Notes: generated by a model not told the origin, from the letters alone. Counted from the stretch's first letter, positions 2,025 to 41,172 are shown. The stretch is 45,003 nt of DNA from a virus (UHGV-0019907); one strand, 5' to 3'. Program-made: numbers and translations.

Positions 2025-5000
2025 ATGGCTGTTCAAGAATCACGCTTAGTTATATCAATTGACGCTAGAAACGCTGAAAGAACAGCTAAGGCGTTGAACT
2101 CAGAATTGCAAGGCATCACCGATAACGGTGCAAAAGCAGACAATCAAATCAATGCAATGAGTGGCTCATTAAAAGCACTTGCTGGCTATATGGGTGGAAT
2201 CCTCACTATCAGCAGTGCTATTTCAATGGCTGACGGATATACGCAAATGGCTGCACGTATCCGCAACGCTACATCAAGCGCAGAAGAATATGAGCTGGTG
2301 CAAGAGCGCATTTTAGCAACAGCTAACACGACATTCCGTAGTTTAGGCGAAGCACAGGAAGTTTACTTGAGCATGGCTGGCGGCATGAAATCGCTTGGAT
2401 ATCAAACCACTCAAACGCTTGACCTTGTGGATTCTCTTTCCTTTAGTTTTACCCATAACGCCACTCGCGCGGATCAGGCGCAAAGTGCAATGGATTCCCT
2501 GTCTAAATCTATGGCGAAAGGCAAAATTGATGCTGACGCATGGATTTCAATTGTCACAGGCGCGGATAACGTCATTGCGGATATGGCAAAAACCACAGGC
2601 AAGACAGAAGCCGAAATCCGAAAACTAGGTGCAGAGGGTAAGGCATCACTTGAGGATTTAATTAAAACCTTAATCGCCACTCGTGATGAAAACGAAAGAC
2701 TTGCAAACAACATGGAAAACAGTTTAGCGGATGGCTTCACAAAGCTAACCAATGAGCTGACTGTTTATTTAGGCAAAGCCAACGAAGCTACAAGCGCAAC
2801 AGGGCTTATGGCTGGAGCATTGACCGTACTTGCCGACAACTTGGATTTGGTGGCAAATGCTGCGCTTGTGGGCGGTATCGGCTACATCACCAAAGCCATT
2901 GTTACAAAAACCATTGCAGTACAAGGTGCTATTGCTGCAAGCGTGGCACAAAAGGCAGCAGATGCAGCAGAAGCGCAATCAAGCATTGCTGTAGCCACTG
3001 CAAAAGTAAACGAAGCCAAAGCGCATCTAGCGAACGTACAAGCCACAAATGCAGAAACCCAAGCCAAGTATGGGGCAGCAGCAGCAAACGCGCGTTACAA
3101 GCTCGCTAGTGACGCTGTGACGCAAGCATTGATTGCACAGACAGCAGCACAAGGAGCATTGAATAGTTCCGTGACATTGGGTAGTCGCGTTCTTGGTTTG
3201 GTTGGTGGCCCAATCGGTGCAATCACTATTGGCGTTAGCGCACTCGCAGCAGGCTATATGTATCTGCAAAGCCGAACAGCCGAAGCGAATGCAAAACTTG
3301 AGGAACAAGGAAAAATTGCAAACAAGACGAATGCGGAACTTGAAAAACTCGCAGGCAACGATAAAGTTTCAGCCGTTAATGATTTGACAGCAGCATTCAA
3401 TTCACAGAATGAAGCCTTGTCGAAATCCAAAGAAGCGGTAGACGCTGTTCTTTTCGCTATTCGTGCTTCATCTGTAGAAAATGAACGTGCTAGAAAAATC
3501 ACCGAGGACGCAAGAAATGGCGTGATCAGCTATACGGATGCTATCAGATTACTAAACAATGAAAAAATCTCAGTAGACCTATATAACAAACTCAAAGATC
3601 AAGCTGATCAGTACGACCAGAACTCAATCAAAGCAGCAAATACACAAAGAGCATTAGCCGCGCTCAAGGTTGAAGTAGACCTTGCGGGGAATGCAATGCA
3701 GAATGCGGCAAACAAAGCATTAAACAAAGCGGATTCAATGGATCGGGATGCAAGCGCAACACGCGATGCAGCGCAGGCGAACCGCGAATATACGCAGTCA
3801 CTTTCTGATAGATTGTGGAATCAGCAGTTCGTAAACCGACTAACAACCAAACACAATAAGACGCAAGAGGAAGCGCAATTATTGCTTGAAGCTTATAGAG
3901 CTAACCAGAAAGAAGACATCAGAGGCGTAACGGCAGAACAAAAAAAGTTAATCAGCGAACTAACAAGAGAGAAAAAGGTCGCAGATGATCTTGTTAAGTC
4001 GGCAACAGCAGGCGCAAAAGCACGTAAAAAAGCAGAATCAGAAGCAACCAAGCAGCGCAACAAAGACAATAAAGAAGCGGAACGCCTGCAAGAAGAACAG
4101 TATCAATTACGCGAGCAAATCGCTTATGAGTATGCTGATCGTATTGGCAAGATTGAAAAAGATTTAGCGCGTGAAATTGCAGATATTCAAAAGGCAAATT
4201 TCTCATCACCGGAGCAAACACGCGGATTTATTCAAAACGCTCAGAATCGTGCCGACTTAGAGAAACAGCTCTATATCGCTCAATTGACGCAGCAGTACAG
4301 CGAATGGCGAGCAACGGAAGAACAAAAACTTGATTACAGAGTTCATGTAAATGAGCTAATGATTCAGCTTGATTCAGATATGAATGACGACCTGAAAAAA
4401 CAGGCCATGCAGTCACTCAAAGATCAGGCGAATTATGAACTAGCACAAATCGAACTAAACAAGGAAAAACGCCTATTTGCAGCCAATGAAATATTCATGT
4501 CTGAAAAAGACAAGATTGCAGAACGCTACCGTTTGGAACGCGAAGAAATCCTTAAAAACAAGCAACTGACTGAGCAAGAAAGACAGGCGCAAATTGCAGG
4601 CACATTTGTCCGTGAAGCAGCCGACACAGCAATGCAGCAGCAAAGTGTAGCTCAAAACTACTTGGGTGCGATTGGTGTTGATTACTCAATGGAAGCGGAA
4701 TTTCAGAAAAGACGTGAAGCCATCATCGCAGCGAACGAGTGGGAATTTATTACCGAGCAAGAAAAGAATGAAAGGCTGCTTCAACTAGATAGAGAGTATC
4801 AGGCAGCACGCTTAAGCCTTCAACTAGATTACGGCCAACAAATCACAGGCTCATTTGCCGATGTATTCAAGACCATTGCAGGCGAGCAGTCAAATGGTTA
4901 TAAGCTGATGTTCACGGCTCAAAAAGCCTTTGCTATTGCAAGTTCGATGATTGCGATTAAAAACGGTATTGCACAAGCGTTTTCATTACCGTTCCCTTTA

Positions 5001-5426: not shown

Positions 5427-5897
5427 ATGGATACTTTTAAACTTTGCCCGCTGCAAGATGGCTATAACTTCATGGCTGGCAATAACGTCCGTGAACAGGC
5501 TTTAGAGGGTGGCCAGCCGCGTCAGGTGATTAAGTTCATCGGCGCGGTGCATCGTGTCGGGGCGCAAGTCATGGCGAAAGACCCGCGCGAACGCCAATAC
5601 TTTTGGGCGTTTTGGCGACTCAATCAGACCAAGCAATTTCTTTGGAATCTAGCACTGGATAGCGGTGATATGGAGGACTGCATTTGTCAGTTTTCAGCCG
5701 AAGCTGTGCCACAGGAAACTTTAGTAGGTGCATTCGCTCGACGTATTTCATTTACGGTTTATGTAACACAGATTGTTCGTAATGCTGATTTTGACCGCGA
5801 CATTATCACTATTTTTGATAACACAGAAGATACCGTGATTCCAGATATTGAGAAAATTCCGAACGTATGGCTGCCTGATGCGGTGGGGGTGGAATAA
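5427..5897 (+). CDS. minor tail protein (distal tail / tip assembly)
   Basis: Position immediately after tape measure; 156 aa. Confidence 0.5.
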   Translation: MDTFKLCPLQDGYNFMAGNNVREQALEGGQPRQVIKFIGAVHRVGAQVMAKDPRERQYFWAFWRLNQTKQFLWNLALDSGDMEDCICQFSAEAVPQETLVGAFARRISFTVYVTQIVRNADFDRDIITIFDNTEDTVIPDIEKIPNVWLPDAVGVE

Positions 5898-6403
5898 TGG
5901 AAATTACAGAAGAAGTCAAACAGATTTTAGACCAAAGCAACGGGCCTTTAGGAATTGTTGAAGCGATTGAAATTAGCCATTCAAAATGGCCGCGTGTGCT
6001 GCGTTATGTTTCCAATTCAAATATCCCATTGATGCTAACACATGAAAACGGCCAGTCCTATCAGTATGTTTATGCGCAAATCAAAATTGAACGCTCGACA
6101 GATTCTGAAACGCTTGAGCAAGAGCTTAATTTCGTATTTGGTGACTTGGGCGGCATCGTACCTGAATTGGTTGATTTGTTTATCAAAGATGAAGTGATTG
6201 AATATCCGCTTGTTACCTATCGCGCTTATTTCATGGGTAAATATGATACGCCTATTTTCATTGCGCGTGATCTTGAATTGGACAAAGTTACACGCGACTG
6301 GAAAGGCGCAAGCTGTCAATCAAAAGCACCAAGCCTGAATGAACTTGGAAATGGTGAGGTTTACACAGCATCTAGTGACCCTGCATTAATTGGATTCTAC
6401 TAA
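5897..6403 (+). CDS. minor tail protein
   Basis: Tightly coupled start (ATGA overlap) with the upstream gene; 168 aa. Confidence 0.5.
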   Translation: MEITEEVKQILDQSNGPLGIVEAIEISHSKWPRVLRYVSNSNIPLMLTHENGQSYQYVYAQIKIERSTDSETLEQELNFVFGDLGGIVPELVDLFIKDEVIEYPLVTYRAYFMGKYDTPIFIARDLELDKVTRDWKGASCQSKAPSLNELGNGEVYTASSDPALIGFY

Positions 6404-11687: not shown

Positions 11688-12047
11688 GTGGAAAATGAAA
11701 GCTATGGGCTGCGGCTCGAAAAGAAGATTGACACACTTCAATCTGAAATCAGGACGCTGACAGACCACATTACGCGGCATACATTTGTCAATGAAGCCAA
11801 TCAACACAAGATTGCAGAGAACAGGCAGATGATTGACGCGCTTGATGGTCGTGTGGGTAATATTGAAGCGCGTCAATCAAGACAGGATGGCGGCATATCA
11901 TCCATTAAATATATTCTAGGCTCTATTGGTGGCGTGGTTTTTGCTGCATGTCTTTGGGTAGGCACATCAATCATTCAAATCAATCAGGATTATGCTTTGA
12001 TGAAAGAGAAGCTATCAAGAATTGAGGTGATTGCTAATGAACGCTGA
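11688..12047 (+). CDS. coiled-coil protein with C-terminal transmembrane helix (lysis-associated?)
   Basis: GTG start with GGGG 8 nt upstream. N-terminal heptad-like region and a hydrophobic stretch ILGSIGGVVFAACLWVGTSIIQI. Its stop overlaps the holin start. Confidence 0.4.
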   Translation: MENESYGLRLEKKIDTLQSEIRTLTDHITRHTFVNEANQHKIAENRQMIDALDGRVGNIEARQSRQDGGISSIKYILGSIGGVVFAACLWVGTSIIQINQDYALMKEKLSRIEVIANER

Positions 12048-12249
12048 GAACACAAGATCATATTTGGCTTTTTCCCTTGTGGGCTTGATGCTTATTTTAA
12101 TCCTGGCATTATTTTTTGTAGACATGCCACGCGAGAATAGTAACCTGATTAATACGGCTCTAGGTTTTATTGCAGGCGCAATGACAACGGCTTGCGGTTT
12201 TTATTTCGGCAGTTCCGAACAAGAAAAGAAAAGAGGTGAGGAATCATGA
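12037..12249 (+). CDS. holin-like protein (two TM helices, charged C-terminus)
   Basis: 70 aa with a GAGGTGA RBS and two hydrophobic helices followed by EQEKKRGEES. It sits immediately upstream of the endolysin. Confidence 0.55.
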   Translation: MNAENTRSYLAFSLVGLMLILILALFFVDMPRENSNLINTALGFIAGAMTTACGFYFGSSEQEKKRGEES

Positions 12250-12755
12250 ATTTCGACGAAGCGTTTAAAATAACGGTGGGGCATGAGGGTGGTTTAACGC
12301 TACACCGTGCAGACCGTGGAAACTGGACAAGTGGTAAAGTCGGTGTTGGTGAATTAAAAGGCACAAAGTACGGCATTAGTGCAATGGCTTATCCAAAGGA
12401 GGATATTAAAAACCTGACGATTGACCGCGCAAAGCAACTGTACAAGCGAGATTATTGGGATAAGTGCCGATGCGATGAATTGCCGAACGGCCTGAGATTT
12501 CATGTATTTGATACCGCCGTGAATAGTGGCGTGGTTCGGGCAGTAAAAACATTGCAGCAGGCAGCAGGCAGTAAGGATGATGGAATTATTGGCCCTGCAA
12601 CGCTTGCGGCTGTACGCTCAAAAGATCAGTGCGAATTGTTGTTATTGTTCTATTCCTTTCGTATTGCTTTCTATACATCAATAGGCACGTTTAACACATT
12701 TGGTAAAGGCTGGATGAATCGTGTTGCTAGTAATTTAAAGATTGGTTTGAAGTAA
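12246..12755 (+). CDS. endolysin, GH108-type lysozyme with peptidoglycan-binding domain
   Basis: N-terminal MNFDEAF..TVGHEGG motif (GH108 signature). The C-terminal region resembles PG_binding_3. Confidence 0.75.
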   Translation: MNFDEAFKITVGHEGGLTLHRADRGNWTSGKVGVGELKGTKYGISAMAYPKEDIKNLTIDRAKQLYKRDYWDKCRCDELPNGLRFHVFDTAVNSGVVRAVKTLQQAAGSKDDGIIGPATLAAVRSKDQCELLLLFYSFRIAFYTSIGTFNTFGKGWMNRVASNLKIGLK

Positions 12756-12757
12756 AA

Positions 12758-12782
12758 AAAAGCCCCGAATAGGGGCTTAATT
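12758..12782. terminator. bidirectional rho-independent terminator
   Basis: agcccc-gaata-ggggct stem with an A8 run on + (which reads as T8 for the - strand gene) and a T-rich 3' flank. Confidence 0.6.
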
Positions 12783-12783
12783 C

Positions 12784-13026
12784 TTATTTCACAAATGAAA
12801 GTATTGCTGATGCTGATAGGTAGATGACATATCCATCTAAAGCCAAAACAACGAGAAATGCAAAAAGAGAAGTTCCATCACCTGAATTTCTATTTCTAGC
12901 TTTCTTTAGTTTTTCCTCCAAATACTCTATCTCCTTATCTTTTGTAGCTATGTTGATATTTCTATTTGTTCGCATTAAGCAAAATAAAATCAACAGTATC
13001 AATAAAATAACAATAGTTCCGTTCAT
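12784..13026 (-). CDS. small membrane protein (2 TM)
   Basis: 80 aa with an N-terminal TM, a charged KDKEIEYLEEKLKK segment and a C-terminal TM. The overlapping + strand ORF is low-complexity mirror sequence. Confidence 0.45.
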   Translation of the reverse strand: MNGTIVILLILLILFCLMRTNRNINIATKDKEIEYLEEKLKKARNRNSGDGTSLFAFLVVLALDGYVIYLSASAILSFVK

Positions 13027-13164
13027 AATTCTTCAAACCCATTTAATTGATTAAGATCACTTTCTTTAAATGCTGACAAGCGCCAGCGGTTATCGTGCCA
13101 CATGTAAACATCGTTATCCTTAAGCATGTAGTACATGCTCAGGATGTTGTTGTAGTGAGTTGAG

Positions 13165-13584
13165 TTAGAATGGCAGGTCATCATCTAACTCAGGTGATTT
13201 CGGCTGTGCAGGCTTTGCATAACTTTGTTGCTGAGTTTGCTGCGGAGCATAACCCTGCTGTTGTGGTGCTTGCTGCTGTTTAGGTTCATTGCGTCCACCA
13301 ACAAGCTCAATATTGTTTACGCGAATTTCAGGATAGATTTTACCCTCATGTTCGCGCAGCGACACTTCACCATAGACAACAACTTGAGTACCTTTAACAA
13401 GGTAATCCATTAACTGACCTTCTGCTTGCTTGCCCCAAATTTTACAGCGCCACCAGTTGGTTGATTTCTTTTCACCAAATCCGACTGAATCACCTACTGA
13501 GAATTCAAGCAATGTTGTTTGACCTACTTGTTTTCGTTCTGAATCTTTACCAAGACGGCCAGAGATTGCGATTGTATTTGACAT
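13165..13584 (-). CDS. ssb: single-stranded DNA-binding protein
   Basis: OB-fold-like N-terminus, Gln/Pro-rich linker and an acidic C-terminal DDDLPF tail. Confidence 0.9.
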   Translation of the reverse strand: MSNTIAISGRLGKDSERKQVGQTTLLEFSVGDSVGFGEKKSTNWWRCKIWGKQAEGQLMDYLVKGTQVVVYGEVSLREHEGKIYPEIRVNNIELVGGRNEPKQQQAPQQQGYAPQQTQQQSYAKPAQPKSPELDDDLPF

Positions 13585-13588
13585 TTTA

Positions 13589-13810
13589 TTAACTCACTTT
13601 GTTTATGTTTTGAATAGCCCATACGCCCAAATCATCAAACGCAGATTTACGTCCGCGCATGTAAGTGGCGTAAAACGAAAGCCAGTGCTTTTGTGTTTCT
13701 GCATCAGTGAACTTGAATCCACGCTTTTCGCATGGCTCATGCTCACGACCTGATTGAATGCCGATGTAGTCCAGGTGTTTAAAAAATAGTTCAAGCATTA
13801 TTCTCTCCAA
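13589..13810 (-). CDS. hypothetical protein
   Basis: 73 aa ORF in the operon between the HNH gene and ssb. Confidence 0.35.
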   Translation of the reverse strand: MERIMLELFFKHLDYIGIQSGREHEPCEKRGFKFTDAETQKHWLSFYATYMRGRKSAFDDLGVWAIQNINKVS

Positions 13811-14408
13811 AAAATGCTGCCGCTGTGATTGGTGTGACTTGACGATTGTAAATCATTGATACTTTTTTTAAAAAATCAATATGATTCATCTTGTTTTTCA
13901 TGAAGTTGCAGTCAGAACAACAAGGGACGCAGTTACCATCAATATATGGTTTTTGACTATCAAGTCGGTCTATCCCTGTAATAAAAGCAGAGCCATTATA
14001 CATAGGTTTTCCGTCTTTTTTATACAATAACCTCTCTCTTGGTTTCTCTCCACAGTAAAAACAATCCTTTGTTGCTATGGATTTAAAGTAATCAATATCT
14101 ATAAAAAAACCAATCCCCCTTCTCTTTGCTGATGCTCTGTATGTTGAAAATATATTATTCATCATAGCCATTCCAGTGTTCAGTTTATGGTAAGAATCCT
14201 TCTCTCTTTTTTTAATAAAATCTTTGTCGTGCTGAGAGCACCCGCATGATTTCATCTTCATTAGGTTCACCCGCAAAACTTCAGTTTTATTTCCACATTC
14301 GCACAAGCATAGTGCTTTTGCTGGCTTTCCTTTACCTTGTGGAATTATATCTACAACAGTCAATCTTCCATTCTTGCTGCCAATCTGGATTGTGCTCTTT
14401 CTACCCAT
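13791..14408 (-). CDS. HNH-family homing endonuclease (Cys-rich)
   Basis: CFYCGEKP...GIDRLDSQKPYIDGNCVPCCSDCNFMKNK (the IDRID...N...CC..CN..K HNH motif), plus an N-terminal CxCxC zinc cluster. Confidence 0.6.
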   Translation of the reverse strand: MGRKSTIQIGSKNGRLTVVDIIPQGKGKPAKALCLCECGNKTEVLRVNLMKMKSCGCSQHDKDFIKKREKDSYHKLNTGMAMMNNIFSTYRASAKRRGIGFFIDIDYFKSIATKDCFYCGEKPRERLLYKKDGKPMYNGSAFITGIDRLDSQKPYIDGNCVPCCSDCNFMKNKMNHIDFLKKVSMIYNRQVTPITAAAFFGENNA

Positions 14409-22161: not shown

Positions 22162-22220
22162 TCTCCTAAAAGTCTTGCTTAGTAATTAATAATAACATAT
22201 TATCATGAACATTGATTTAA

Positions 22221-26352: not shown

Positions 26353-26672
26353 TTTGAAACTCCATTAAGTAAAAGAATCCCTACTTTGATAATGGTCATT
26401 TCAGGATGGTTTTATTATATCAAATTGACGGTTAATTTGGGAGTGGTATTTGTATATTTTATCTAAATGAGAATGATTCTATAAAGTTAAAATCTTACCA
26501 GTTAGCCTATTCTTCTTATATATCATTAGGGTTTAATGGTATAAATATTATATAGAAATAACGCGTAATTCATATAAAAAAGTAATGTACTTTATTTAAA
26601 TTAATAGAAAAAAGTAATTAGAAGTTTTACTATAATTATAATAATATATTGACATAACTTAGGAGAAATCAC
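26353..26672. promoter_or_regulatory. AT-rich 320 bp divergent control region
   Basis: Very low GC, with repeated AAAAAGTAAT and TATAAT-like boxes. It separates the leftward Bro-N operon from the rightward late operon. Confidence 0.4.
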
Positions 26673-31710: not shown

Positions 31711-31974
31711 CATTGGTTTTGGTGCAGTGGTAATATTCTATTATTGATTGAATCCATGCGCGACATGGTAGTAAGTATAGCGCCTTATTTGGTTTGGTCG
31801 CTAGATTCAAAGCTGACTATACGCTTAAGACGAATCATGCAACTATTCGCACGTTGCCGATCAATAAAATAAGCAAGTAGATTGCAGATAGCTTGGGGCA
31901 TGAAATCCCGATTGATGTTTGCTTGCTTTCTAGGTTATTCAGCCTAGTGACCGCCCGAAAGTGGGCAATTTTAG

Positions 31975-32074
31975 AGAGTGAATGAGGTGTACTGGTTGCA
32001 TTGCATTCAGCATAGAAATATGTATCGGGTAAGGCGCTGCCGATGGACTAGGTTCGATTCCTGGCGTTCACTCT
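31975..32074 (+). ncRNA. tRNA-like minihelix element (10 bp acceptor-like stem + canonical T-arm); not a canonical tRNA
   Basis: agagtgaatg (31975-84) pairs with cgttcactct (32065-74) with one G.U. The T-arm ctagg-TTCGATT-cctgg at 32048-64 is directly adjacent. The interior does not fold as D or anticodon arms by eye. Confidence 0.25.
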
Positions 32075-32233
32075 ACTAAAGTTCAAACCCGTGATACATC
32101 GGGAGCTTGCGAAAGTCTTTAGTCCTCAGACTTTAAATAAGTAACAAGCCAAAGTATGAATGTATCAAGTGTTTCCCTAACATGGGGGAGTTACCGCAGT
32201 AGCCGCGCTGTACACGAAAGGCGGTAATAACTA

Positions 32234-32262
32234 AGCCTTGCTATATGCAGGGCTTTTTTATA
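32234..32262 (+). terminator. rho-independent terminator ending the non-coding structured segment
   Basis: agccttgc-tata-tgcagggct followed by TTTTTT. Confidence 0.6.
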
Positions 32263-32290
32263 CCTTAAAGAAAATAACAGGGAGTTGGCT

Positions 32291-32398
32291 ATGCTTGCAT
32301 TTATCAAAAGACTGCTGTGCTTTCATCACTACGATTATCAATCAGACATATTTCGGCAAACTGAATGCCGGAAATGCGGAAAATACAAGGCCGATTAA
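32291..32398 (+). CDS. putative 35 aa Cys/His mini-protein
   Basis: AGGGAG RBS 6 nt upstream; MLAFIKRLLCFHHYDYQSDIFRQTECRKCGKYKAD. Ends in the terminator at 32389-32409. Confidence 0.3.
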   Translation: MLAFIKRLLCFHHYDYQSDIFRQTECRKCGKYKAD

Positions 32399-32409
32399 TG
32401 GCCTTTTTT
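32389..32409 (+). terminator. rho-independent terminator
   Basis: ggcc-gattaat-ggcc followed by TTTTTT. Confidence 0.5.
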
Positions 32410-32414
32410 GATGC

Positions 32415-32443
32415 TTGACAATTGGTATTTATAATAACATAAT
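32415..32443 (+). promoter_or_regulatory. sigma70-like promoter
   Basis: TTGACA-N17-CATAAT upstream of the 32467 gene. Confidence 0.5.
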
Positions 32444-32466
32444 GACATAAAGTTAAGGAGATAAGC

Positions 32467-32715
32467 ATGAACACAGCAATCAAATACGCAAACGAAAACG
32501 GTATCGAAGCACTTAAAGACGCGCTGCCTGTATCACTCAAGCCGTCAACAAATGAATCAATCGTTCTGGACGGCATTCGCATTAACCTAGCCGATGCTTT
32601 TGAAGTGGTCGCAGCGAGTGACTTTGTAGAAAAGTTTAACGCATTGCCTTGCCTGTACGATGATTTAGCAGAGAAGGCGCGTTATTTCGAGATTATGTCG
32701 GAGGTGGAGGCGTGA
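32467..32715 (+). CDS. hypothetical protein
   Basis: 82 aa with a TAAGGAGA RBS. Confidence 0.45.
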   Translation: MNTAIKYANENGIEALKDALPVSLKPSTNESIVLDGIRINLADAFEVVAASDFVEKFNALPCLYDDLAEKARYFEIMSEVEA

Positions 32716-32790
32716 GCAGTCGTGAATTTGTGGCAGGATTGGTCTTGCTGCCTTTCGCTTTATTTATTGTTTATACAGGAGCGTTGATTA

Positions 32791-32985
32791 ATGGATTTTA
32801 AGGAATGGAGTAAATACAATTTAGGCTATACAGGCGAAGATGCATACAAAGCCGGCCAACAAAGTAAACAGGCGGAGATTGATGCGCTCAAAGCGAAAAT
32901 AGATGGCGTGTTAGAACTTATGCGCCATCCAATGAGAGGAACAACATCGGACTTGCTGTCAGATATAGAGGATATTTTGGGATGA
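32791..32985 (+). CDS. hypothetical protein
   Basis: 64 aa with AGGAG 10 nt upstream. Confidence 0.4.
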   Translation: MDFKEWSKYNLGYTGEDAYKAGQQSKQAEIDALKAKIDGVLELMRHPMRGTTSDLLSDIEDILG

Positions 32986-33194
32986 ACATTGAAACAATGC
33001 AAAAAATTGTAGACGGTGCGCCTAAGTGGGCGGATACATACCTTTTTCATGGTATATATTCTGATTCAAAAATTGTTGATTGTGGCGCTATAGGCATTCC
33101 ATTGGACAACCTACGCACCGAACTAGCCAAACGCGAACCAATGGATTTGCGAGATGTAGATATTCCACACGGCACAATTGTTTTGGAGAAGTAG
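32982..33194 (+). CDS. hypothetical protein
   Basis: 70 aa; ATGA overlap with the upstream gene. Confidence 0.4.
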   Translation: MNIETMQKIVDGAPKWADTYLFHGIYSDSKIVDCGAIGIPLDNLRTELAKREPMDLRDVDIPHGTIVLEK

Positions 33195-33195
33195 A

Positions 33196-33378
33196 ATGAA
33201 TCACGGTTGGTATGAAATTATGGATAGACTTTTTGTTTTTCAGCAAGGGATTGAAGAACACGTTAAAAACCATCAGGCGAGCGATGACGAGTTAAAGCGA
33301 TTGATTGATGAAGCACAAGAGAAGTTAGCTGATGCTTATCAATATGCAGGCGGAAAGGCTTTAGAGGGTGAGGAATGA
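33196..33378 (+). CDS. hypothetical protein
   Basis: Start at MNHGWYE with a GGAGAAGTAGA-ATG context; 60 aa. Confidence 0.4.
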   Translation: MNHGWYEIMDRLFVFQQGIEEHVKNHQASDDELKRLIDEAQEKLADAYQYAGGKALEGEE

Positions 33379-33515
33379 ATATAAACATAGCCATGTTGAC
33401 CATAACAGCGATATTGTTTTTCTTTGGATTTATTGATTTCGAGAAAGCTGTACTCTCTATCATGTCAATTGCCTGCTTTTTTCTATATGACATACACAAG
33501 GAATTAAGAAAATGA
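33375..33515 (+). CDS. 46 aa membrane peptide (2 TM)
   Basis: ATGA overlaps on both sides; MNINIAMLTITAILFFFGFIDFEKAVLSIMSIACFFLYDIHKELRK. Confidence 0.35.
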   Translation: MNINIAMLTITAILFFFGFIDFEKAVLSIMSIACFFLYDIHKELRK

Positions 33516-33724
33516 CCCCACAACAAATTAAAGCAAATGCACCGGAAGGGGCGCAATACTATTGCGAATATCCAATAACAATCTACGACAAGAGAGGATC
33601 GTATTTAAAGTCTAGATTTAAATTATTGTTTAGATGGGAGTGTGGCAAATGGGTTTTTATATGTTTCCCATTTCGACAAGGAGACTGTGAGAAGAACGGC
33701 TATATTAAACTCAAGCCCCTATAA
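33512..33724 (+). CDS. small protein of the 'APEGA...KPL' paralog family (copy B)
   Basis: QIKANAPEGAQYY...IKLKPL, with its stop in the terminator loop. Confidence 0.5.
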   Translation: MTPQQIKANAPEGAQYYCEYPITIYDKRGSYLKSRFKLLFRWECGKWVFICFPFRQGDCEKNGYIKLKPL

Positions 33725-33738
33725 CAGGGCTTTTTTAT
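33712..33738 (+). terminator. rho-independent terminator
   Basis: agcccc-tataac-agggct followed by TTTTTT. Confidence 0.6.
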
Positions 33739-33740
33739 TG

Positions 33741-33770
33741 CTATAATAAGAAAAACTTATATAGGGTTAG
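33741..33770 (+). promoter_or_regulatory. conserved palindromic element TATAAG-AAAAA-CTTATA + GGGTTAG (copy 2)
   Basis: Matches 11655-11686; directly precedes the portal start codon. Confidence 0.4.
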
Positions 33771-33774
33771 AAAA

Positions 33775-35172
33775 ATGTCAGTAGATTTTCAGCATTTAGA
33801 TTATTTAGAAAATGCCGACAGATGGCAGATGATGCAGGACGTATGCAGTGGCTCACGTGCGGTCAAGAAAGCAAAAACACTGTATCTGCCTATGATTAAC
33901 TTTTGCGACAATCCAGACCAAAACTGGGCGCGTTACCAAGCATATTTAAAACGTGCCGTTTTCTATCCGATCACAAAGAATACTTTGCAGACGCATATCG
34001 GCCTGGCTTTTGCAGAAGATCCGACTTTTGACCCTGACGGCATGGATTTTCTCAAGGACAACGCGGACGGCTTAGGCACTTCGATTTATCAGCTCAATCA
34101 GAAAGCTTTAAGCCTGTTGCTCAAATTTGGTCGTGGCGGATTCTTGGTGGACTATCCGACCACTCAAGGCGGGGTAACACCAGCCGACATTCAAACGCGC
34201 GGCATACGGCCAATCATGGCGTTATACGACGCATTTAACATCATTAACTGGCGTGTTAAGAAGATTGGCAATGAATTTCGCACCTCTTTGGTCGTTTTGC
34301 GCGAATTTGCGACGCAAACAGACCCACTAAATGAGTTTCAGGATAAGGTTGTCACAAACTACCGCGTACTTCGCCTAGATGAGAATAACGAATATTTGAT
34401 TCAAGTCTATTCAGACAGCACAGGCGAAATGCTGGCGGGTGAATTGATTTACCCGACTATCAATGGCAAACGTTTAAATGAAATCCTGTTTTTCCCAATC
34501 GGGGCGCAGGTTAATGACTTTTCAATTGACGAAATCCCGCTTGAACCAGTGGCCGAAATCAACCTGGCACATTACCGCAACAGTGCCGAGTACGAGCAAT
34601 CGGTATTCTTCACTAACCAAGTGCAGCCTGTTTTTAGTGAGCTAGACCATGATGATGCTGACCGTTTAGAGCAAGACGGCGTGATGTTGGGCAGTGCAAC
34701 ACCGCTCGTTCTACGTGGAACCGGGAAGTTCGCCTACGCAACCGCACCAATTGACACGTTGGCAAAAGAAGCGATGGATGACAAAAAACAGTACATGCAG
34801 GACTTGGGCGCGAAATTGCTTGATTCCAACGCAGTAAATAAGACCGCCACGCAGATTAACTCCGAAGATGCTACAAATCACTCTGTCTTGTCGCTGTGCG
34901 TGTCGAACCTGAATGAAGCTATGGAGTACTGCCTGAAATGGTGTGCAGCGTTTTACGGTTCAGGCAGCAATGCTCGCTTCACGATTAAGCAGGACTTTGC
35001 GCGTGGTCGCATTTCACTGGAGGATTTAAAATTCTACCAATCGGAAGTTGTCGCAGGTCGAATGAGCGCAAAAACGCTGCATGAGATTATGTCTACAGGT
35101 AAAATTCCAGAGCTGGATTTTGATGAGGAACGACTCAGAATCGAGGAATCTAAGACGCAAAGTTTTGTATAA
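33775..35172 (+). CDS. portal protein (putative)
   Basis: 465 aa; first large gene after terminase and upstream of the Mu-F-like, scaffold and capsid genes. Assigned by position and size only. Confidence 0.55.
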   Translation: MSVDFQHLDYLENADRWQMMQDVCSGSRAVKKAKTLYLPMINFCDNPDQNWARYQAYLKRAVFYPITKNTLQTHIGLAFAEDPTFDPDGMDFLKDNADGLGTSIYQLNQKALSLLLKFGRGGFLVDYPTTQGGVTPADIQTRGIRPIMALYDAFNIINWRVKKIGNEFRTSLVVLREFATQTDPLNEFQDKVVTNYRVLRLDENNEYLIQVYSDSTGEMLAGELIYPTINGKRLNEILFFPIGAQVNDFSIDEIPLEPVAEINLAHYRNSAEYEQSVFFTNQVQPVFSELDHDDADRLEQDGVMLGSATPLVLRGTGKFAYATAPIDTLAKEAMDDKKQYMQDLGAKLLDSNAVNKTATQINSEDATNHSVLSLCVSNLNEAMEYCLKWCAAFYGSGSNARFTIKQDFARGRISLEDLKFYQSEVVAGRMSAKTLHEIMSTGKIPELDFDEERLRIEESKTQSFV

Positions 35173-35188
35173 AATTACCCATGAAATT

Positions 35189-35211
35189 AGCCCCAGAAAT
35201 GGGGCTTTTTA
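35189..35211 (+). terminator. rho-independent terminator
   Basis: agcccc-agaaat-ggggct followed by TTTTT. Confidence 0.65.
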
Positions 35212-35427
35212 CTGCTCAAAATTTGATCATTTAGGACATAATCTTATAAAAGCTCTATGTGATATATAATGATAATATGTTCTTATAATTTACGTGTTTT
35301 TCTATAATTTCCTTATACCAGTTGTATAAGATGTTATAAGATAAATAGTAGATTCTGGTAAGTTTACCAACAATGGAATTATTCTCAATTACGTGCTATT
35401 ATCTCCAAAATTATAGGAGAAAATACT

Positions 35428-35691
35428 ATGTCTATCGCGCAATCAGAAGATAAAGAAATTCAGTATATCTATAGCTTGAGATTTGATTTAAAAAAGCGAA
35501 TGAAGAAAGCAATCAAAAGAACAGGATTGTCACGCGCTGAAATCAACATGAAAGTTTCAAAAGCTGCTGGTAAATTTACAGAGGGGAAGGATCATTTAAA
35601 TTATATGACCTCACTGAAATACTATCTTGAGAATGGCGACATTGATTCCGAGCAGCATGAAAGAATTGCAAAACTGATAGATAAACTGTGA
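35428..35691 (+). CDS. hypothetical protein with possible HTH
   Basis: 87 aa with an AGGAGA RBS; RTGLSRAEINMKVSKAAGKF segment. Downstream of an AT-rich region carrying repeated TTATAAG. Confidence 0.4.
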   Translation: MSIAQSEDKEIQYIYSLRFDLKKRMKKAIKRTGLSRAEINMKVSKAAGKFTEGKDHLNYMTSLKYYLENGDIDSEQHERIAKLIDKL

Positions 35692-35784
35692 TATAATTTA
35701 GACACGGCTAGGCTGATCCCCGAAAAGACGATTCGTTACCGTCCTGCCGTGCTACAGAGTAACGACCCTAACGAGGATTGAAGA

Positions 35785-36348
35785 ATGCGATTATTTGTAG
35801 ATATTGGCATCGATGATGTGCTTGGCTCAGTAAAGACAAAAGAACACAGACTTTGGGTTGATATGCTCACCAGAAGCTATGATGAAAAACTACACCAAAG
35901 ACAACCAACATACCTAGACTGCGAAACATCAAGTGATTTTTTGGTTTTCTCTAAATTTCGCGACTGGTGTCAAAATCAAATAGGATTCAATCAGCCAAAA
36001 TTCGAGCTTGATAAAGACCTGTTAGAGAAGGGCAATAAGGAATACCACCCCGATAAATGTGTTTTTATTCCTAGGGCTATAAATTCAGCACTAAAAACAA
36101 GAAAGAAGATGCGCGGCAATTTACCAATAGGTGTCACCTCAAACAAATGTGGCTCTTATATTGCCCAAATAAACGATAGCCTAGGGAAAAGGTATCTTGG
36201 CAGCTTCCCCACTCCAGAACAAGCCTTTCAAGCCTACAAGGTGGCCAAAGAAAACCACCTCAAACTACTTGCTGAAAAATACCGCGACCAAATCGACCCT
36301 AGAGCCTATGAAGCACTTTTAAATTACAAAGTTGAAATAACTGATTAA
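35785..36348 (+). CDS. HNH homing endonuclease with C-terminal AP2 DNA-binding domain
   Basis: ELDKDLLEKGNKEYHPDKCVFIPRAIN (HNH_3-like) and LPIGVTSNKCGSYIAQINDSLGKRYLGSFPTPEQAFQAYKVAKENH (AP2 pattern). Confidence 0.65.
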   Translation: MRLFVDIGIDDVLGSVKTKEHRLWVDMLTRSYDEKLHQRQPTYLDCETSSDFLVFSKFRDWCQNQIGFNQPKFELDKDLLEKGNKEYHPDKCVFIPRAINSALKTRKKMRGNLPIGVTSNKCGSYIAQINDSLGKRYLGSFPTPEQAFQAYKVAKENHLKLLAEKYRDQIDPRAYEALLNYKVEITD

Positions 36349-36409
36349 TAATATGTTGACATAGATCACAAGGATGTGTATCTTTTAATCACTACTTAGG
36401 AGAATGAAC

Positions 36410-36514
36410 ATGAAAGCACTTTTACTAATTATTTCCGTACTGATGATGATTTTTGTGAACGTCATTTTCGGTTTTCTAATGCTGGTGCTGGTTGCGCTGT
36501 TTGTGAAGGATTGA
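36410..36514 (+). CDS. 34 aa hydrophobic membrane peptide
   Basis: MKALLLIISVLMMIFVNVIFGFLMLVLVALFVKD, with AGGAGA 6 nt upstream and a TTGACA-N17-TATCTT promoter. Confidence 0.35.
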   Translation: MKALLLIISVLMMIFVNVIFGFLMLVLVALFVKD

Positions 36515-36518
36515 AGAT

Positions 36519-36704
36519 ATGATTACATGGGTAACAGTTTGGGTTTTAACAGTGCAGACTTGCTATGACTGTAATTCAAATACAGCATATCAACTAACAT
36601 ACGCAACAAAAGAGATATGCGAGAAGCAGTTGGCAAAACATAGCAAATCGTACAGCAAAAGCGCACGTTGCGACTTTCAACAAATTCCAGTGGTGAAGAA
36701 ATGA
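36519..36704 (+). CDS. hypothetical small protein with N-terminal hydrophobic segment
   Basis: 61 aa, MITWVTVWVLTV..., 4 Cys. Confidence 0.35.
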   Translation: MITWVTVWVLTVQTCYDCNSNTAYQLTYATKEICEKQLAKHSKSYSKSARCDFQQIPVVKK

Positions 36705-36790
36705 ACTACCAAGACAACCCAGTTTTAACCACTGTAATTTCAATGTTAATCGGCCTTGCAATCGCAGGCATTTGGATAGTAGGGCTTTGA
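36701..36790 (+). CDS. 29 aa membrane peptide
   Basis: ATGA overlap with the upstream gene; MNYQDNPVLTTVISMLIGLAIAGIWIVGL. Confidence 0.3.
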   Translation: MNYQDNPVLTTVISMLIGLAIAGIWIVGL

Positions 36791-36791
36791 T

Positions 36792-36926
36792 ATGATCATC
36801 CTAGCAGCAATAATAGCCCTGATTTGCGCTGTAATCGCGTTAGAGCTACGTTACAAGGTTAAGCGTACCAACTACATAGAACGGAAAGAAATCGATCAAA
36901 TACGAGCATTCAGGAGCAAATGGTAA
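36792..36926 (+). CDS. 44 aa membrane peptide
   Basis: MIILAAIIALICAVIALELRYKVKRTNYIERKEIDQIRAFRSKW; its stop overlaps the next start (TAATG). Confidence 0.3.
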   Translation: MIILAAIIALICAVIALELRYKVKRTNYIERKEIDQIRAFRSKW

Positions 36927-37405
36927 TGAACCAACTAAAAACCAAAATCGACGAAGTGAAAGAAAAACTCGCATTAACGCAGATGCAACTATCCGAGCGT
37001 ATCGGCAAGAATCCGTATTACTTGGACACCGTGAAGCATCGCGGGGTTACAACTGAACGCCAGAATGAACTTATGCTTGAATTAGACCTAGTGGCCAACG
37101 GCGGAACGGTGATGACTGAGCGTGAAATTATCGCAGAACTCACCGAAAAAGCGGACACACTACAAAGCAGACTGAACAGCGCACAAGTAGCAAACAAGGA
37201 GCTTTGCCAAAAATTAGAACTTGCAGAAAACCAACATCGCCAGCTTGAAGAAATGTATGATTCAAATTGGGATAAGCTGCAAGAAACAAATAAACTCGTT
37301 GCATCCCTGCAAGAATACAAACAGCAATATCGCAACTTGGCAGCAACTGTACTTGTTGTTGGTGTTATTATTATTTTAGGCTTTGCGCTTTGGGGTTTAA
37401 AATGA
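36926..37405 (+). CDS. XRE-like HTH protein with coiled coil and C-terminal TM anchor
   Basis: LALTQMQLSERIGKNPYYLDTVKHRG (HTH-like), a Q/E/L-rich coiled coil and C-terminal VLVVGVIIILGFALWGL. Alternative ATG at 36920. Confidence 0.45.
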   Translation: MNQLKTKIDEVKEKLALTQMQLSERIGKNPYYLDTVKHRGVTTERQNELMLELDLVANGGTVMTEREIIAELTEKADTLQSRLNSAQVANKELCQKLELAENQHRQLEEMYDSNWDKLQETNKLVASLQEYKQQYRNLAATVLVVGVIIILGFALWGLK

Positions 37406-38520
37406 CCACTGAACAAAACATGCTGGACGCATTAATCCAGCATCAGGTTTATAGTTACAGGGCATCAACTGCGGTGGTGAATGAGCTTAACGGCTTATTC
37501 ACTAAAGCGATGAATCAGACTGCTACAAAACTTCGGGAGCTGTTAGATGAGCTAACCGATTCTGAACGTGATGCCTTACTGTCTGGCCGATACACAACTG
37601 ACACGCTCAAGGAAATCAAATCCACGTTTGACGAGCTTTACACCGCCGTAGCAATCACTGTGCCGGAAACTTTCACGGTATCAGCTATTGCGCTTGCTAC
37701 CTATGAAGCTGCTTATATTTCTAAACTTTACGGTGAAGAAATTGAACTCAATGGCAGCAAGGTCGTTGCCAACATCAAGAAAAAGCCAGTTATGGGCGGC
37801 ATGTTGTTTGATGATGTATGGAAAAACCTAGCAGAATCGACACGCAATAAAGCCTTATACGCGGTACGTCAAGGAATCGAGCAAGGAAACACGACAGCGC
37901 AAATCGTGGCTGAACTTCGCGGAAAGCGTACGCGCATGGCAGATGGGTCTTATAAATACGTTGGCGGAATTGTTGATGAAGTACGCAGAAATGGCATTGA
38001 AGCGAATGTGCGTACTATCAGGGCGACAGTGGCCAATACCGCGATGCAGGAAACATTTAGCGTTTTGGGTTATAAATATGTTAAGTTTTTCAATGTGTTA
38101 GACGGAAGGACTTCCAAGAAGTGCGCTTTTTACTCCAATAAAGTCTATAGCATTGATGAGCCGCATCCGGCTCCACCTTTGCATCCAAATTGCCGTTCCT
38201 TACTTATTGGTGTTTCTGATAAGGAAGGAAAATTAGAAGGCAAGCGGCCTTTTGTAGCATCAGATAAACCAGTATCAAAGATACCCAAAGACCAGCGCAG
38301 CGATGTTATTGGTCAGGTAGATGCAAATGTGGGCTTTAAATCGTGGTTCAATAAGCAAGATGCAGAATTTCAACGTAACTGGCTGGGTAGTTCGCGCTAT
38401 GCCTTATTCAAGAAAGGTGGATATGATCTAGATCGTTTTGTTGATCCGCTTGGGAATGAATTGACGCTTGCTGAACTTAGGGAACTCGATAGTCGCACGT
38501 TTAAGGAGTTGGGATTATGA
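37402..38520 (+). CDS. head morphogenesis protein (Mu F / SPP1 gp7 family)
   Basis: FNVLDGRTSKKCAFYSNKVYSIDEPHPAPPLHPNCRS (Phage_Mu_F signature); ATGA overlap with the upstream gene. Confidence 0.8.
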   Translation: MTTEQNMLDALIQHQVYSYRASTAVVNELNGLFTKAMNQTATKLRELLDELTDSERDALLSGRYTTDTLKEIKSTFDELYTAVAITVPETFTVSAIALATYEAAYISKLYGEEIELNGSKVVANIKKKPVMGGMLFDDVWKNLAESTRNKALYAVRQGIEQGNTTAQIVAELRGKRTRMADGSYKYVGGIVDEVRRNGIEANVRTIRATVANTAMQETFSVLGYKYVKFFNVLDGRTSKKCAFYSNKVYSIDEPHPAPPLHPNCRSLLIGVSDKEGKLEGKRPFVASDKPVSKIPKDQRSDVIGQVDANVGFKSWFNKQDAEFQRNWLGSSRYALFKKGGYDLDRFVDPLGNELTLAELRELDSRTFKELGL

Positions 38521-38711
38521 TCAAACTCATACTACAAACAAACGCAAAACACATAGAGAAATCAATTAAGGCAGCAACCGATCACTTTGTCGAAATGGAA
38601 TCAAAGTCACTCGCGGAAGTTGATATTAAGGGATTCTTAAAAGATTATGTTTCTGCGTTATTTATTTTTGACATCAGGTGCTTTAGTCTTAAAGAGGAGC
38701 AGCAACCATGA
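38517..38711 (+). CDS. hypothetical protein
   Basis: 64 aa; ATGA overlap with the Mu-F-like gene. Confidence 0.35.
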   Translation: MIKLILQTNAKHIEKSIKAATDHFVEMESKSLAEVDIKGFLKDYVSALFIFDIRCFSLKEEQQP

Positions 38712-38835
38712 CCCTAAACGAAAGAATCGACACAATTAACCTGCATATATATTTAGGAAAAAAGCAGGGCTTTGATGTTTCGTACTTAAAGGAATTGCGC
38801 TCACAGCGTTATTTAAAATCATGGGATTTGTATTT

Positions 38836-39018
38836 ATGACCCTAGAAGAAATCCGCAAGAACGCGCCAGAGGGTGCAACGCACTACAGAGTTAGAGAAAA
38901 CGGCAAGATTATGTACTACATTTTTGAGCGCGGAGAACTGTCAATAATGAGGAAGAATAACAAATTTGTTCTTAGTGCATTTAATATAGATGCCTATGAA
39001 ATCAAGCCCCTTAATTGA
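38836..39018 (+). CDS. small protein of the 'APEGA...KPL' paralog family (copy C)
   Basis: MTLEEIRKNAPEGATHY...IKPLN, with its stop in the terminator loop. The track's alternative start is at 38821. Confidence 0.5.
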   Translation: MTLEEIRKNAPEGATHYRVRENGKIMYYIFERGELSIMRKNNKFVLSAFNIDAYEIKPLN

Positions 39019-39027
39019 GGGCTTTTT
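39004..39027 (+). terminator. rho-independent terminator
   Basis: agcccc-ttaattga-gggct followed by TTTTT. Confidence 0.6.
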
Positions 39028-39107
39028 CCATTTGTTATATAAATAAAACTGATATAATATAAACGTAATCGCGTTGGGCGCGTTTAAATTAAAGCAGGGC
39101 TTTATAT

Positions 39108-41128: not shown

Positions 41129-41172
41129 GTCTGGAATAAGTGTAGGATGATAATATGTTGACAATTTAGGAG

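Follow-up and report, generated by a model that had tools for sequence, protein, structure and literature searches.

Small genes between the portal and MuF genes

The DNA stretch UHGV-0019907 (45,003 nt; here called the window, on whose whole length all positions are counted) looks like a complete tailed-phage genome of about 45 kb, with a GC content of 41.8% and structural genes of the TRS1-like siphovirus type, and this work concerns a block of small genes between its portal gene and its MuF-like head morphogenesis gene, which includes the stretch shown (positions 36,349 to 37,405). By sequence reading and in the ORF list, five open reading frames (ORFs) of 34, 61, 29, 44, and 159 amino acids (aa), all on the plus strand, tile positions 36410 to 37405 (Table 1); an earlier note on this DNA had given the same lengths for the first four and 160 aa for the last. 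The ORF2/ORF3 junction is an ATGA overlap, the ORF4/ORF5 junction is a TAATG overlap, and the stop codon of ORF5 overlaps the start of MuF (ATGA, 37402), an arrangement of translational coupling to MuF. No terminator was found between ORF5 and MuF, the next terminator-like hairpins lying at about 39008 to 39082.

The portal protein matches phrog_145 (4e-134), and by this protein the nearest named phage is Acinetobacter phage TRS1 (54% aa identity), with many Acinetobacter phages next; the window phage belongs to an Acinetobacter-type lineage. Megablast of positions 33700 to 38600 against 50,697 phage records gave zero matches. In TRS1, the portal gene (1765-3171) and the head morphogenesis gene (3188-4273) are adjacent. 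Because a MuF-type gene follows the TRS1 portal after only 16 nt, the 2.2 kb that make up the portal-MuF interval of the window (35173-37401) are extra relative to TRS1, and the insertion between these two genes that the earlier note had suggested is thus evident. Six distinct close relatives (L003, L006, L007, L008, L010, and L014; group 1) have portals 92 to 95% identical and MuF proteins 75 to 79% identical to those of the window, and one further contig, L002, is identical to the window.

ORF1, ORF3, ORF4, and ORF5 were found in the same order in all six relatives. From portal to MuF, the group-1 order is an 87- or 95-aa gene, a 61-nt spacer, ORF1, ORF3 directly followed by ORF4, ORF5, and MuF, and between the fixed points of the block each relative has its own small genes inserted, which in the window are ORF2 and a cassette with an HNH homing endonuclease gene. 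ORF2 was present only in the window and L010 (two of the seven group-1 loci; 93% aa identity) and is a variable cargo gene, not a member of the core. Ratios of nonsynonymous to synonymous polymorphism (pN/pS) across the group-1 relatives were 0.19 for ORF1 (seven loci), 0.29 for ORF4, 0.08 for ORF2 (from one pair), and 0.67 for ORF3 (from two alleles, both hydrophobic). Since these values show purifying selection, the small ORFs are real genes and not chance readings, as had been argued earlier from the coupled junctions. The public gene calls for L002 (3589-4001, equivalent to window positions 36514 to 36926) list the 34-aa and 159-aa genes and skip ORF2, ORF3, and ORF4, which shows how micro-genes escape annotation. 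A 132-aa minus-strand ORF opposite ORF5 (37018-37416) was taken as a shadow ORF of the coiled-coil gene. Searches of Pfam, PHROGs, and PADLOC with the five ORFs and the 87-aa protein returned nothing informative, and a repeat search of positions 35100 to 37500 found short chance-level repeats only and no flanking direct repeats.

Hydrophobicity was assessed on the Kyte-Doolittle (KD) scale as KD17 maxima. Of the four single hydrophobic helices that had been proposed, those of ORF1 (2.99), ORF3 (2.42), and ORF4 (3.29) are clear segments of transmembrane (TM) grade, as is the C terminus of ORF5, but that of ORF2 is marginal (1.01, with 12 uncharged N-terminal residues); ORF2 also lacks a canonical lipobox (it has VQTC) and a basic n-region. 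By this measure, ORF1, ORF3, and ORF4 are clear candidates for single-pass membrane proteins. An upstream ATG at 36404 would extend ORF1 to 36 aa. The C-terminal side of ORF4 carries a charge of +5, and a protein-collection search with ORF4 returned 20 homologues, all 43 to 45 aa long and all close relatives of it; no match was found among deposited phages.

Architecture and family of ORF5

The AlphaFold (AF2) model of ORF5, built on an alignment of 31 sequences, had a predicted local distance difference test score (pLDDT) of 88.8 and consisted of a four-helix N-terminal domain (N-domain) followed by a single continuous helix from residue 65 to residue 157. Residues 1 to 60 (pLDDT 86 to 92) form a helix bundle with the helix 2-turn-helix 3 arrangement of XRE-type helix-turn-helix (HTH) domains. 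With Foldseek against the PDB, the top matches were all Cro/C1-type HTH proteins (434 repressor, ClgR, C.Esp1396I, HipB, NatR, and Aca2), and the top fold matches in BFVD were likewise of this type; the E values against the PDB were weak (0.2 to 0.8) because two thirds of the query is a single long helix. A profile of 17 diverse N-domains matched the HTH of TraN/AM32 (PDB 6G1T) with an E value of 2.4e-7; phmmer with the single ORF5 N-domain against the PDB was not significant (E = 0.41). Among the same 17 family N-domains, 11 matched Pfam HTH_3 (best 7e-5) and 8 matched HTH_ParB, all below threshold, and window ORF5 had no HTH_3 match, its N-domain reaching only HTH_19 (E = 0.04; 14.3 bits, cut-off 30.2); neither it nor any of the 17 family members thus reaches the HTH_3 clan at the curated Pfam threshold. 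The remaining matches of ORF5 in Pfam, PHROGs, and PADLOC (KIF9, JetC, LmuB, and tape measure) were coiled-coil noise; in PADLOC these were JetC and LmuB at E values of 3e-4 or above, and the other ORFs gave nothing there.

Beyond the HTH domain, the heptad register is unbroken from residue 61 to about residue 123, and the TM segment occupies residues 138 to 158 of 159 behind a polar N-terminal HTH domain, which is the layout of a tail-anchored protein as judged from sequence. The AF2 model, the KD profile, and the TraN profile match together upheld the earlier description of this gene as one that combines an XRE-like HTH, a coiled coil, and a C-terminal TM anchor. Among 120 close homologues, mean pairwise identity was 93% in the HTH domain, 53% in the stalk, and 68% in the TM segment, with stalks of 45 to 76 aa and a hydrophobic C terminus in every one. 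The hydrophobic C terminus also occurs in the divergent full-length representatives, in the homologue of Acinetobacter phage HFM1, and in WCHABP1 gp80, and about 20 full-length representatives (50% clustering) keep the HTH-coiled-coil-TM plan though their coiled coils are unalignable.

In metagenomic assemblies, we found 266 ORF5 homologues, many of them on contigs of 41 to 47 kb, and a HMMER search of 1.84 billion cluster representatives with ORF5 residues 1 to 70 returned 30 proteins only. Scans of 185,579 species genomes, one with ORF5 and one with a group-2 alignment (see below), found no relative, by a search that needed exact peptide patterns and leaves absence unproven; hence, we found no prophage copy and no direct host assignment. 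Some ORF5 homologues have an N-terminal extension of about 72 aa (MNNLHITCENLEQRQDVF...) before the HTH (L003 10001-10681; P0094, P0114, and P0118; L015 4785-5792; L030 2986-3777). An extension of this type is also found in HFM1 and Obolenskvirus members, is without family assignment, and is missing from window ORF5.

From the positive-inside rule and the absence of signal peptides in ORF3, ORF4, and ORF5, we predict that ORF5 and ORF3 are tail anchored with cytoplasmic N termini and that ORF4 lies N-out/C-in; all conserved soluble parts of the core would then face the cytoplasm.

Related modules and the surroundings of the block

Equivalent modules were found at other genome positions in other phages, consistent with the mobility that the earlier note had ascribed to the block. 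In 11 IMG/VR loci of more distant, uncultured phages (group 2), whose ORF5 N-domains are about 45 to 50% identical to those of group 1, the set consists of a 94-aa homologue of the block's first gene, ORF3 (29 aa) overlapping ORF4 (41 aa), cargo genes, usually a 64- to 66-aa lipoprotein-like gene ('LPTGC'), and then an ORF5-like gene, and it lies upstream of a baseplate hub gene (phrog_196) instead of in the portal-MuF interval. Between the two groups, no member of the module is better conserved than ORF4 (69% identity, E = 2e-17); ORF3, which in both groups is always immediately upstream of ORF4, is 43% identical (E = 7e-7), and ORF1 is absent from group 2. Group-2 ORF5 had no match among deposited phages. 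Homology of ORF2 to the group-2 'LPTGC' proteins or to the Cys proteins of HFM1 was rejected (BLASTP E values of 1.9 to 3.7).

A third group (group 3) comprises Acinetobacter phage HFM1, the only (and weak) match when phages were searched by tblastn with window ORF5, and loci L027 to L029. Its ORF5-like genes have the 72-aa N-terminal extension and much longer stalks, the coiled coil covering most of the 335-aa HFM1 protein, and they sit after a primase/helicase gene, beside unrelated small TM genes; ORF1 was not found here either. When the HFM1 protein was used as the tblastn query, 23 deposited phages were matched, all of them Acinetobacter phages and mostly of Obolenskvirus, in which the genes are annotated as 'transcriptional regulator' and the record is silent on a membrane anchor. 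One of these, WCHABP1 gp80 (263 aa), consists of the extension, the HTH, the coiled coil, and a C-terminal TM segment. It is divergent from gp79 (L030 2459-2884, minus strand), a CI-like protein with a C-terminal XRE-type HTH, and so stands in a cro-like position; two genes downstream of it, gp82 (L030 4140-4472) encodes a canonical lipoprotein (...VALAAC). ORF1, ORF3, ORF4, and ORF5 are thus a conserved module of the window lineage, with related sets at other genome positions, and the module is portable. As far as we found, the ORF5 family appears to be confined to Acinetobacter-type phages.

In size and composition, ORF1, a wholly hydrophobic 34-aa protein, is like the TisB, Hok, and Ldr peptides, and the block might on this ground be a membrane toxin-antitoxin system in which ORF1 (or ORF3) is a depolarizing peptide of the type I toxin kind that is neutralized by a neighbor or by an antisense RNA. 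No convincing antisense promoter, RNA family, or match to a toxin-antitoxin family was found, group 2 keeps the remainder of the module and lacks ORF1, and the genes form one tightly coupled operon with head genes in a phage that is apparently virulent (no integrase was seen in the window genome, and ORF5 was not found in the species genomes). We therefore consider a toxin most improbable.

The sigma-70-like site ahead of ORF1, TTGACA-17-TATCTT, which the earlier note had read as the promoter of the cluster, is present and is followed by a conserved leader and a Shine-Dalgarno (SD) sequence (TTAGGAGAATGAACATG). In the other six relatives TTGACA is invariant, and a -10-like hexamer (TATCTT or TAGTAT) always lies 17 nt away; this pair is kept despite a differing spacer sequence and regardless of which gene leads, which speaks for a function. 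The 7-kb region as a whole has no excess of promoter-like sites (11 found against 15.8 expected from shuffles), and a 19-mer (TATAATAAYATRTTGACAT) that occurs eight times in the window with at most three mismatches (0.11 copies expected) has the -35-like hexamer at its 3' end; it also contains a TATAAT. The 19-mer copies are mostly on the plus strand, just upstream of transcription units and often after terminators, and they recur at the same places in L003, L006, L007, L008, L010, and L014; those other than the copy at ORF1 precede the primase gene, other small-gene islands, and head-tail genes, with an SD sequence directly after them and no -10 partner. In group 2, a related motif is placed immediately before the SD sequence. 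Because TTGACA is part of this eight-copy 19-mer, whose other copies are without a -10 partner, the site should be read as a promoter only with caution: it is present and its function is putative, and the 19-mer may be a phage-wide promoter or regulator site and not a private 'moron' promoter.

Like morons and other accessory islands, the block consists of extra genes of variable content between structural genes that are adjacent in a relative (the portal and head genes of TRS1), with a terminator upstream and a promoter-like site. Unlike them, it lacks a downstream terminator of its own after ORF5, which is instead coupled to MuF, and it has a conserved four-gene core. The terminator-like hairpin just after the portal gene is kept in all relatives, and in L008 (about 3180-3200) its stem has changed in a compensatory manner (GGGCC/GGCCC versus AGCCCC/GGGGCT), which supports it as a real terminator. 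Homologues of the 87-aa protein that leads the block are encoded by every group-1 relative and by 7 of the 11 loci of group 2 (L016, L017, L018, L020, L022, L026, and, weakly, L023); L024 and L025 lack the gene, and an HNH gene occupies its place. An AF2 model of this protein on a shallow alignment had four helices (pLDDT 63), hhalign against the ORF5 N-domain profile gave a weak match (probability 29%, E = 6e-4), its profile matched only designed helical repeats in the PDB, and a protein search returned nine close relatives only. It has no Pfam or PHROG assignment and is possibly HTH-like.

The earlier note had also viewed the block as cargo of the gene immediately upstream, described there as an HNH-AP2 homing endonuclease. 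The HNH part of that description stood, whereas the AP2 part was weak (Table 1). This HNH gene is present in the window (and the identical L002) and in L007 and is absent at the site from L003, L006, L008, L010, and L014. Its insertion point lies exactly between the stop codon of the 87-aa gene and the conserved spacer; the site is empty of HNH in L003, L006, and L010, has a 207-aa TM protein in L008, and in L014 a different 199-aa HNH gene (5471-6070) lies between ORF5 and MuF. ORF1, ORF3, ORF4, and ORF5 are present without the window HNH in L003, L006, L008, and L010. These four genes occur in all six relatives and the HNH gene in a minority of them; the HNH gene is therefore not the vehicle of the block but an insertion in its own right, variable among the relatives and located on the 5' border of the module.

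T-even homing endonucleases are known for homing with co-conversion of flanking DNA, a process that could spread neighboring genes. The same HNH family (34 to 68% identity, with a ...VEITD C terminus) flanks the 5' edge of the module in group 1 (the window and L007) and in group 2 (L017, L019, and L023 to L025), groups that differ in structural backbone, and homing-assisted spread of the genes that neighbor the HNH gene, those of the module, is conceivable. That the block itself moves as cargo of the adjacent endonuclease is nevertheless improbable, given the conservation of the module in every relative and the precise insertion point, and also because the position of the HNH varies (before a 93-aa gene in L017, after ORF5 in L014) and HFM1 and Obolenskvirus have ORF5-like genes with no HNH of this kind adjoining.

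The two phages with the window allele of the HNH gene both have an int-alpA-like RNA motif (Rfam RF02996) immediately before that gene; in L007 the motif is at 3525 to 3589 (28.9 bits), and the CUAG, CGAAAAG, and CCUG consensus loops are present. The 93-nt spacer that contains the motif has a GC content of 48%, compared with 28 to 35% in its flanks. The motif belongs to the HNH insertion and not to the membrane module; we had not expected an element of the int-alpA type ahead of a gene for a homing endonuclease. Free-standing endonucleases of the homing type abound in the lineage: another gene of the window is HNH/endonuclease VII-like (13791-14408, minus strand), and L003 has two DUF723 genes after MuF (12151-13168).

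The portal-MuF interval is one of three hypervariable small-gene islands that interrupt the head module (31711-33774 between terminase and portal, 35173-37401 between portal and MuF, and 38517-39100 between MuF and scaffold), and their content differs among phages with portals that are 92 to 95% identical. In the first island, the window has a 46-aa gene with two hydrophobic stretches that is translationally coupled to its neighbors (33375-33515), and L014 has a gene with a precomputed match to the AcrIF11 ADP-ribosyltransferase, which our own hmmscan did not reproduce, the model being possibly missing from the Pfam copy scanned. The large terminase subunit of L006 (1-513; 753-aa product) contains an intein (PF14890, Intein_splicing, by precomputed annotation), unlike the 502-aa terminase of the window.

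The lysis cassette of the window lies about 24 kb from the block and consists of a 119-aa protein with an N-terminal coiled coil and one TM segment near its C terminus, a 72-aa protein with two TM segments, and an endolysin (phrog_315). An 80-aa ORF with two TM segments is just downstream on the opposite strand (12784-13026, minus strand). No spanin was recognizable beside the endolysin, and this is a feature shared with the Obolenskviruses, which are virulent, are without an integrase, and likewise have no identified spanin (PMC10888812). Lysis control would then be one role for the block, with the small TM proteins acting like holins, antiholins, or pinholins and with ORF2 and ORF5 in place of the missing spanin pair. 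As with lambda Rz/Rz1, a coiled-coil membrane protein of about 150 aa is encoded near small Cys-containing or lipoprotein-like proteins. However, an inner-membrane spanin has an N-terminal TM segment and a periplasmic coiled coil, and ORF5, with its N-terminal HTH, C-terminal TM segment, and no signal peptide, is predicted to have the opposite topology, with a cytoplasmic coiled coil; an outer-membrane spanin has a lipobox Cys, is conserved with its partner, and is encoded in the lysis cassette, and ORF2 has no lipobox, is absent from most relatives, and lies outside the cassette. Moreover, the endolysin has TM neighbors of its own, and no match of the cluster to a PHROG lysis family was found. 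A role in lysis is therefore very unlikely.

Table 1. Features of the block and of the rest of the window
Feature	Positions	Strand	Remarks
19-mer copies	853-871, 1741-1759(-), 22188-22206, 26637-26655, 32430-32448, 35269-35287(-), 36344-36362, 41146-41164		
Intrinsic-terminator-like hairpin	35189-35206	+	7-bp stem with 5 GC pairs, T-run; just after portal, upstream edge of block
87-aa protein	35428-35691	+	basic, all-helical; leading gene of block in most relatives; 87- and 95-aa alleles
int-alpA-like RNA motif	35701-35765	+	RF02996, 29.1 bits (below gathering threshold of 35.8), E = 0.006
HNH homing endonuclease	35785-36348	+	187 aa; phrog_953, 1.7e-64; Pfam AP2 only E = 0.068
19-mer copy at the block	36344-36362	+	consensus TATAATAAYATRTTGACAT, local form ATTAATAATATGTTGACAT; 3' end is the '-35' hexamer
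Sigma-70-like site, TTGACA-17-TATCTT	36356-36384	+	matches 10 of 12 positions; function putative
ORF1	36410-36514	+	34 aa; wholly hydrophobic, predicted single-pass; AGGAG 7 nt upstream
ORF2	36519-36704	+	61 aa; four cysteines, weakly hydrophobic N terminus
ORF3	36701-36790	+	29 aa; N-terminal motif M-x-Y-[QK]-x-N-P, C-terminal TM (predicted); core member
ORF4	36792-36926	+	44 aa; N-terminal TM, conserved basic tail NYIxRKEIDQIRA, predicted cytoplasmic
ORF5	36926-37405	+	159 aa; ATG 36926 lies 9 nt from AGGAG and fits family N terminus MNQLK
ORF5 residues 1-60, XRE/TraN-like HTH	36926-37105	+	AF2 helices 2-15, 19-25, 32-39, 43-57
ORF5 residues 61-137, coiled-coil stalk	37106-37336	+	hypervariable length and sequence among relatives
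ORF5 residues 138-159 and stop, C-terminal TM tail anchor	37337-37405	+	KD 2.85
MuF-like head morphogenesis gene	37402-38520	+	PF04233, 2e-8; phrog_241, 2.3e-111; downstream boundary of block
Tail genes, tail spike, lysis cassette	cassette 11688-12755		window annotation
SSB, thymidylate synthase, MazG, exonuclease, Erf, methylase, helicase		-	minus-strand block
Primase, Ant-like gene, terminase, portal, head genes			remaining window genes

A possible membrane-tethered DNA-binding complex

As far as known kinds are concerned, the block falls among phage accessory membrane genes and membrane-tethered DNA-binding proteins, and the ORF5 family is uncharacterized. We favor, tentatively and at something less than an even chance, the reading that the module encodes a complex on the inner face of the cytoplasmic membrane that would hold bound DNA (probably that of the phage), or a regulator, at that place. 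ORF5 would dimerize or oligomerize via its coiled coil and stand on the membrane face presenting its HTH heads, and these would bind DNA, most likely at specific sites of the phage genome, so that either the DNA is held at the membrane or the regulator itself is kept membrane bound. ORF3 and ORF4 (and ORF1 in the window lineage) would sit within the membrane as small partners and either assemble the complex or modulate it. A conserved head with a freely varying stalk is what would be expected if the stalk is a spacer between a specific binding head and its anchor, a role in sequence-specific DNA binding agrees with the cro-like position of the Obolenskvirus member, and the co-conservation of ORF3, ORF4, and ORF5 at a different place in a second group counts in favor of the same reading.

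Several points weigh against it. No homologue of known function was found, and it is we who infer DNA binding, topology, oligomerization, and contact of ORF3 and ORF4 with ORF5. The individual fold and Pfam HTH matches are under curated thresholds, so that only the TraN profile match is significant, and the net charge of the window HTH domain, as counted from the sequence, is about zero; there are HTH domains, that of RodZ for one, whose binding partners are proteins and not DNA. The repeated 19-mer is a candidate binding site, and none was identified. ORF3 and ORF4 are missing beside the ORF5-like genes of group 3 and Obolenskvirus and are thus perhaps not obligatory partners, and the cluster, which here is co-oriented and coupled with late head genes, has its counterparts in early regions in HFM1 and Obolenskvirus.

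Among known systems, the closest in function would be p16.7 of Bacillus phage phi29, a small membrane protein that recruits the viral DNA and organizes its replication at the membrane. Like ORF5 as predicted, it has a single TM helix and a coiled coil along with a small DNA-binding domain made of helices (PMC4974454). No sequence similarity between the two was seen in any search, and phi29 has a Gram-positive host and protein-primed replication. In p16.7 the TM segment is N-terminal and the DNA-binding domain C-terminal, the reverse of the order in ORF5. Noc and RacA of B. subtilis are bacterial analogies, and the proposed complex would resemble all three in function with a topology that is reversed or simplified.

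The sole significant sequence link to the N-domain of the ORF5 family is TraN of pIP501 and AM32 of pAMbeta1 (PDB 6G1T and 4P0Y), over about 40 residues only (...SERIGKNRNYL...). TraN binds DNA via two HTH recognition helices in the 6G1T co-crystal (PMC6158623). It differs from ORF5 in being a cytosolic monomer with two HTH repeats, a beta-barrel-like center, no coiled coil, and no TM segment, and it is a repressor of Gram-positive conjugative plasmids. Cro/C1 proteins (XRE, HTH_3) share the four- or five-helix HTH fold with ORF5, and the Obolenskvirus member is in a cro-like position; classical Cro and CI, however, are without the long coiled coil and the C-terminal membrane anchor that ORF5 has. 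WCHABP1 gp80, AP22 I2GUH5, and HFM1 WNA15578 are of the same family or architecture as ORF5. These Obolenskvirus and HFM1 members are only 28 to 35% identical to window ORF5 over the N-terminal part, share with L003 the extension of about 72 aa that window ORF5 lacks, and are encoded in early or replication regions instead of between portal and MuF, with no ORF3 or ORF4 neighbors; none has been characterized.

A more speculative and, in our estimation, doubtful extension is that Acinetobacter phages, including Obolenskvirus, share a hitherto undescribed class of tail-anchored HTH-coiled-coil proteins that would physically tie particular places on the phage genome to the cytoplasmic membrane. 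This class would work, in the window lineage, with the two conserved micro-proteins of 29 and 44 aa, and it would be an inverted Gram-negative counterpart of p16.7 that organizes replication, transcription, or packaging at the membrane. Literature searches returned nothing pertinent on tail-anchored or membrane-anchored HTH phage proteins.

The accessory nature of the cluster, which is absent from TRS1 and lies in one of a set of hypervariable islands that elsewhere carry an AcrIF11-like gene, would also suit a module for superinfection exclusion or envelope defense, in which the small membrane proteins (with cargo such as ORF2) would keep the DNA of competing phages from entering, or deny them the receptor, in the manner of T4 Imm and Sp, T5 Llp, Cor, or HK97 gp15, and ORF5 would capture or regulate at the membrane. 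The conserved promoter-like site of its own, the recurrence of lipoprotein-like genes near ORF5-like genes ('LPTGC' in group 2, 'LAAC' in WCHABP1 gp82), and the richness of the phage family in small membrane proteins are consistent with this, and the hypervariable stalk could mirror an arms race. We nevertheless regard exclusion as plausible but rather unlikely: no similarity to known exclusion or defense proteins was found in PHROGs, Pfam, or PADLOC, the lipoprotein-like genes are variable and not core, and the HTH domain would have no obvious role. In particular, the prediction places the conserved soluble parts of these three proteins (ORF3, ORF4, and ORF5) in the cytoplasm and not in the periplasm, and this orientation, together with the separate lysis cassette, argues against functions in lysis and in periplasmic exclusion alike.

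The predicted cytoplasmic tail of ORF4, the most conserved element across the phage groups, would suit a conserved host target, and the HTH of ORF5 is not basic; ORF1, ORF3, and ORF4 might thus be small membrane regulators of the AcrZ, MgrB, Blr, or SidA type that act in host takeover on division, shape, transport, or proteases, with the ORF5 HTH binding a host protein instead of DNA. The HTH of RodZ, for example, binds MreB. Neighboring cargo genes, with DUF551-like and Ea22-like N termini, also resemble typical early accessory genes. Yet the resemblance is architectural only, with no homology to such regulators, the profile similarity of the ORF5 HTH is to the DNA-bound TraN, ParB, SinR, and C-protein HTHs, and RodZ is absent among the sequence and fold matches, which makes host takeover unlikely.

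Were the block an exclusion or host-takeover module, it would still matter for the design of Acinetobacter phage cocktails, and the Obolenskvirus myophages that carry ORF5-like genes are used therapeutically. Either way, the idea of the block as HNH endonuclease cargo is corrected. If the proposed membrane-tethered complex is real, a priority pathogen genus has phages with a DNA-binding protein tethered to the membrane, which annotation now labels as a soluble 'transcriptional regulator' or 'hypothetical protein' and whose conserved partners of 29 and 44 aa are often missed by gene calling altogether, and a Gram-negative example would be added to the very few phage systems that organize viral DNA at the membrane. 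It would also provide a natural HTH-stalk-anchor module of compact build, in which the length of the stalk varies, and an instance of a conserved functional core that persists inside a hypervariable accessory island.

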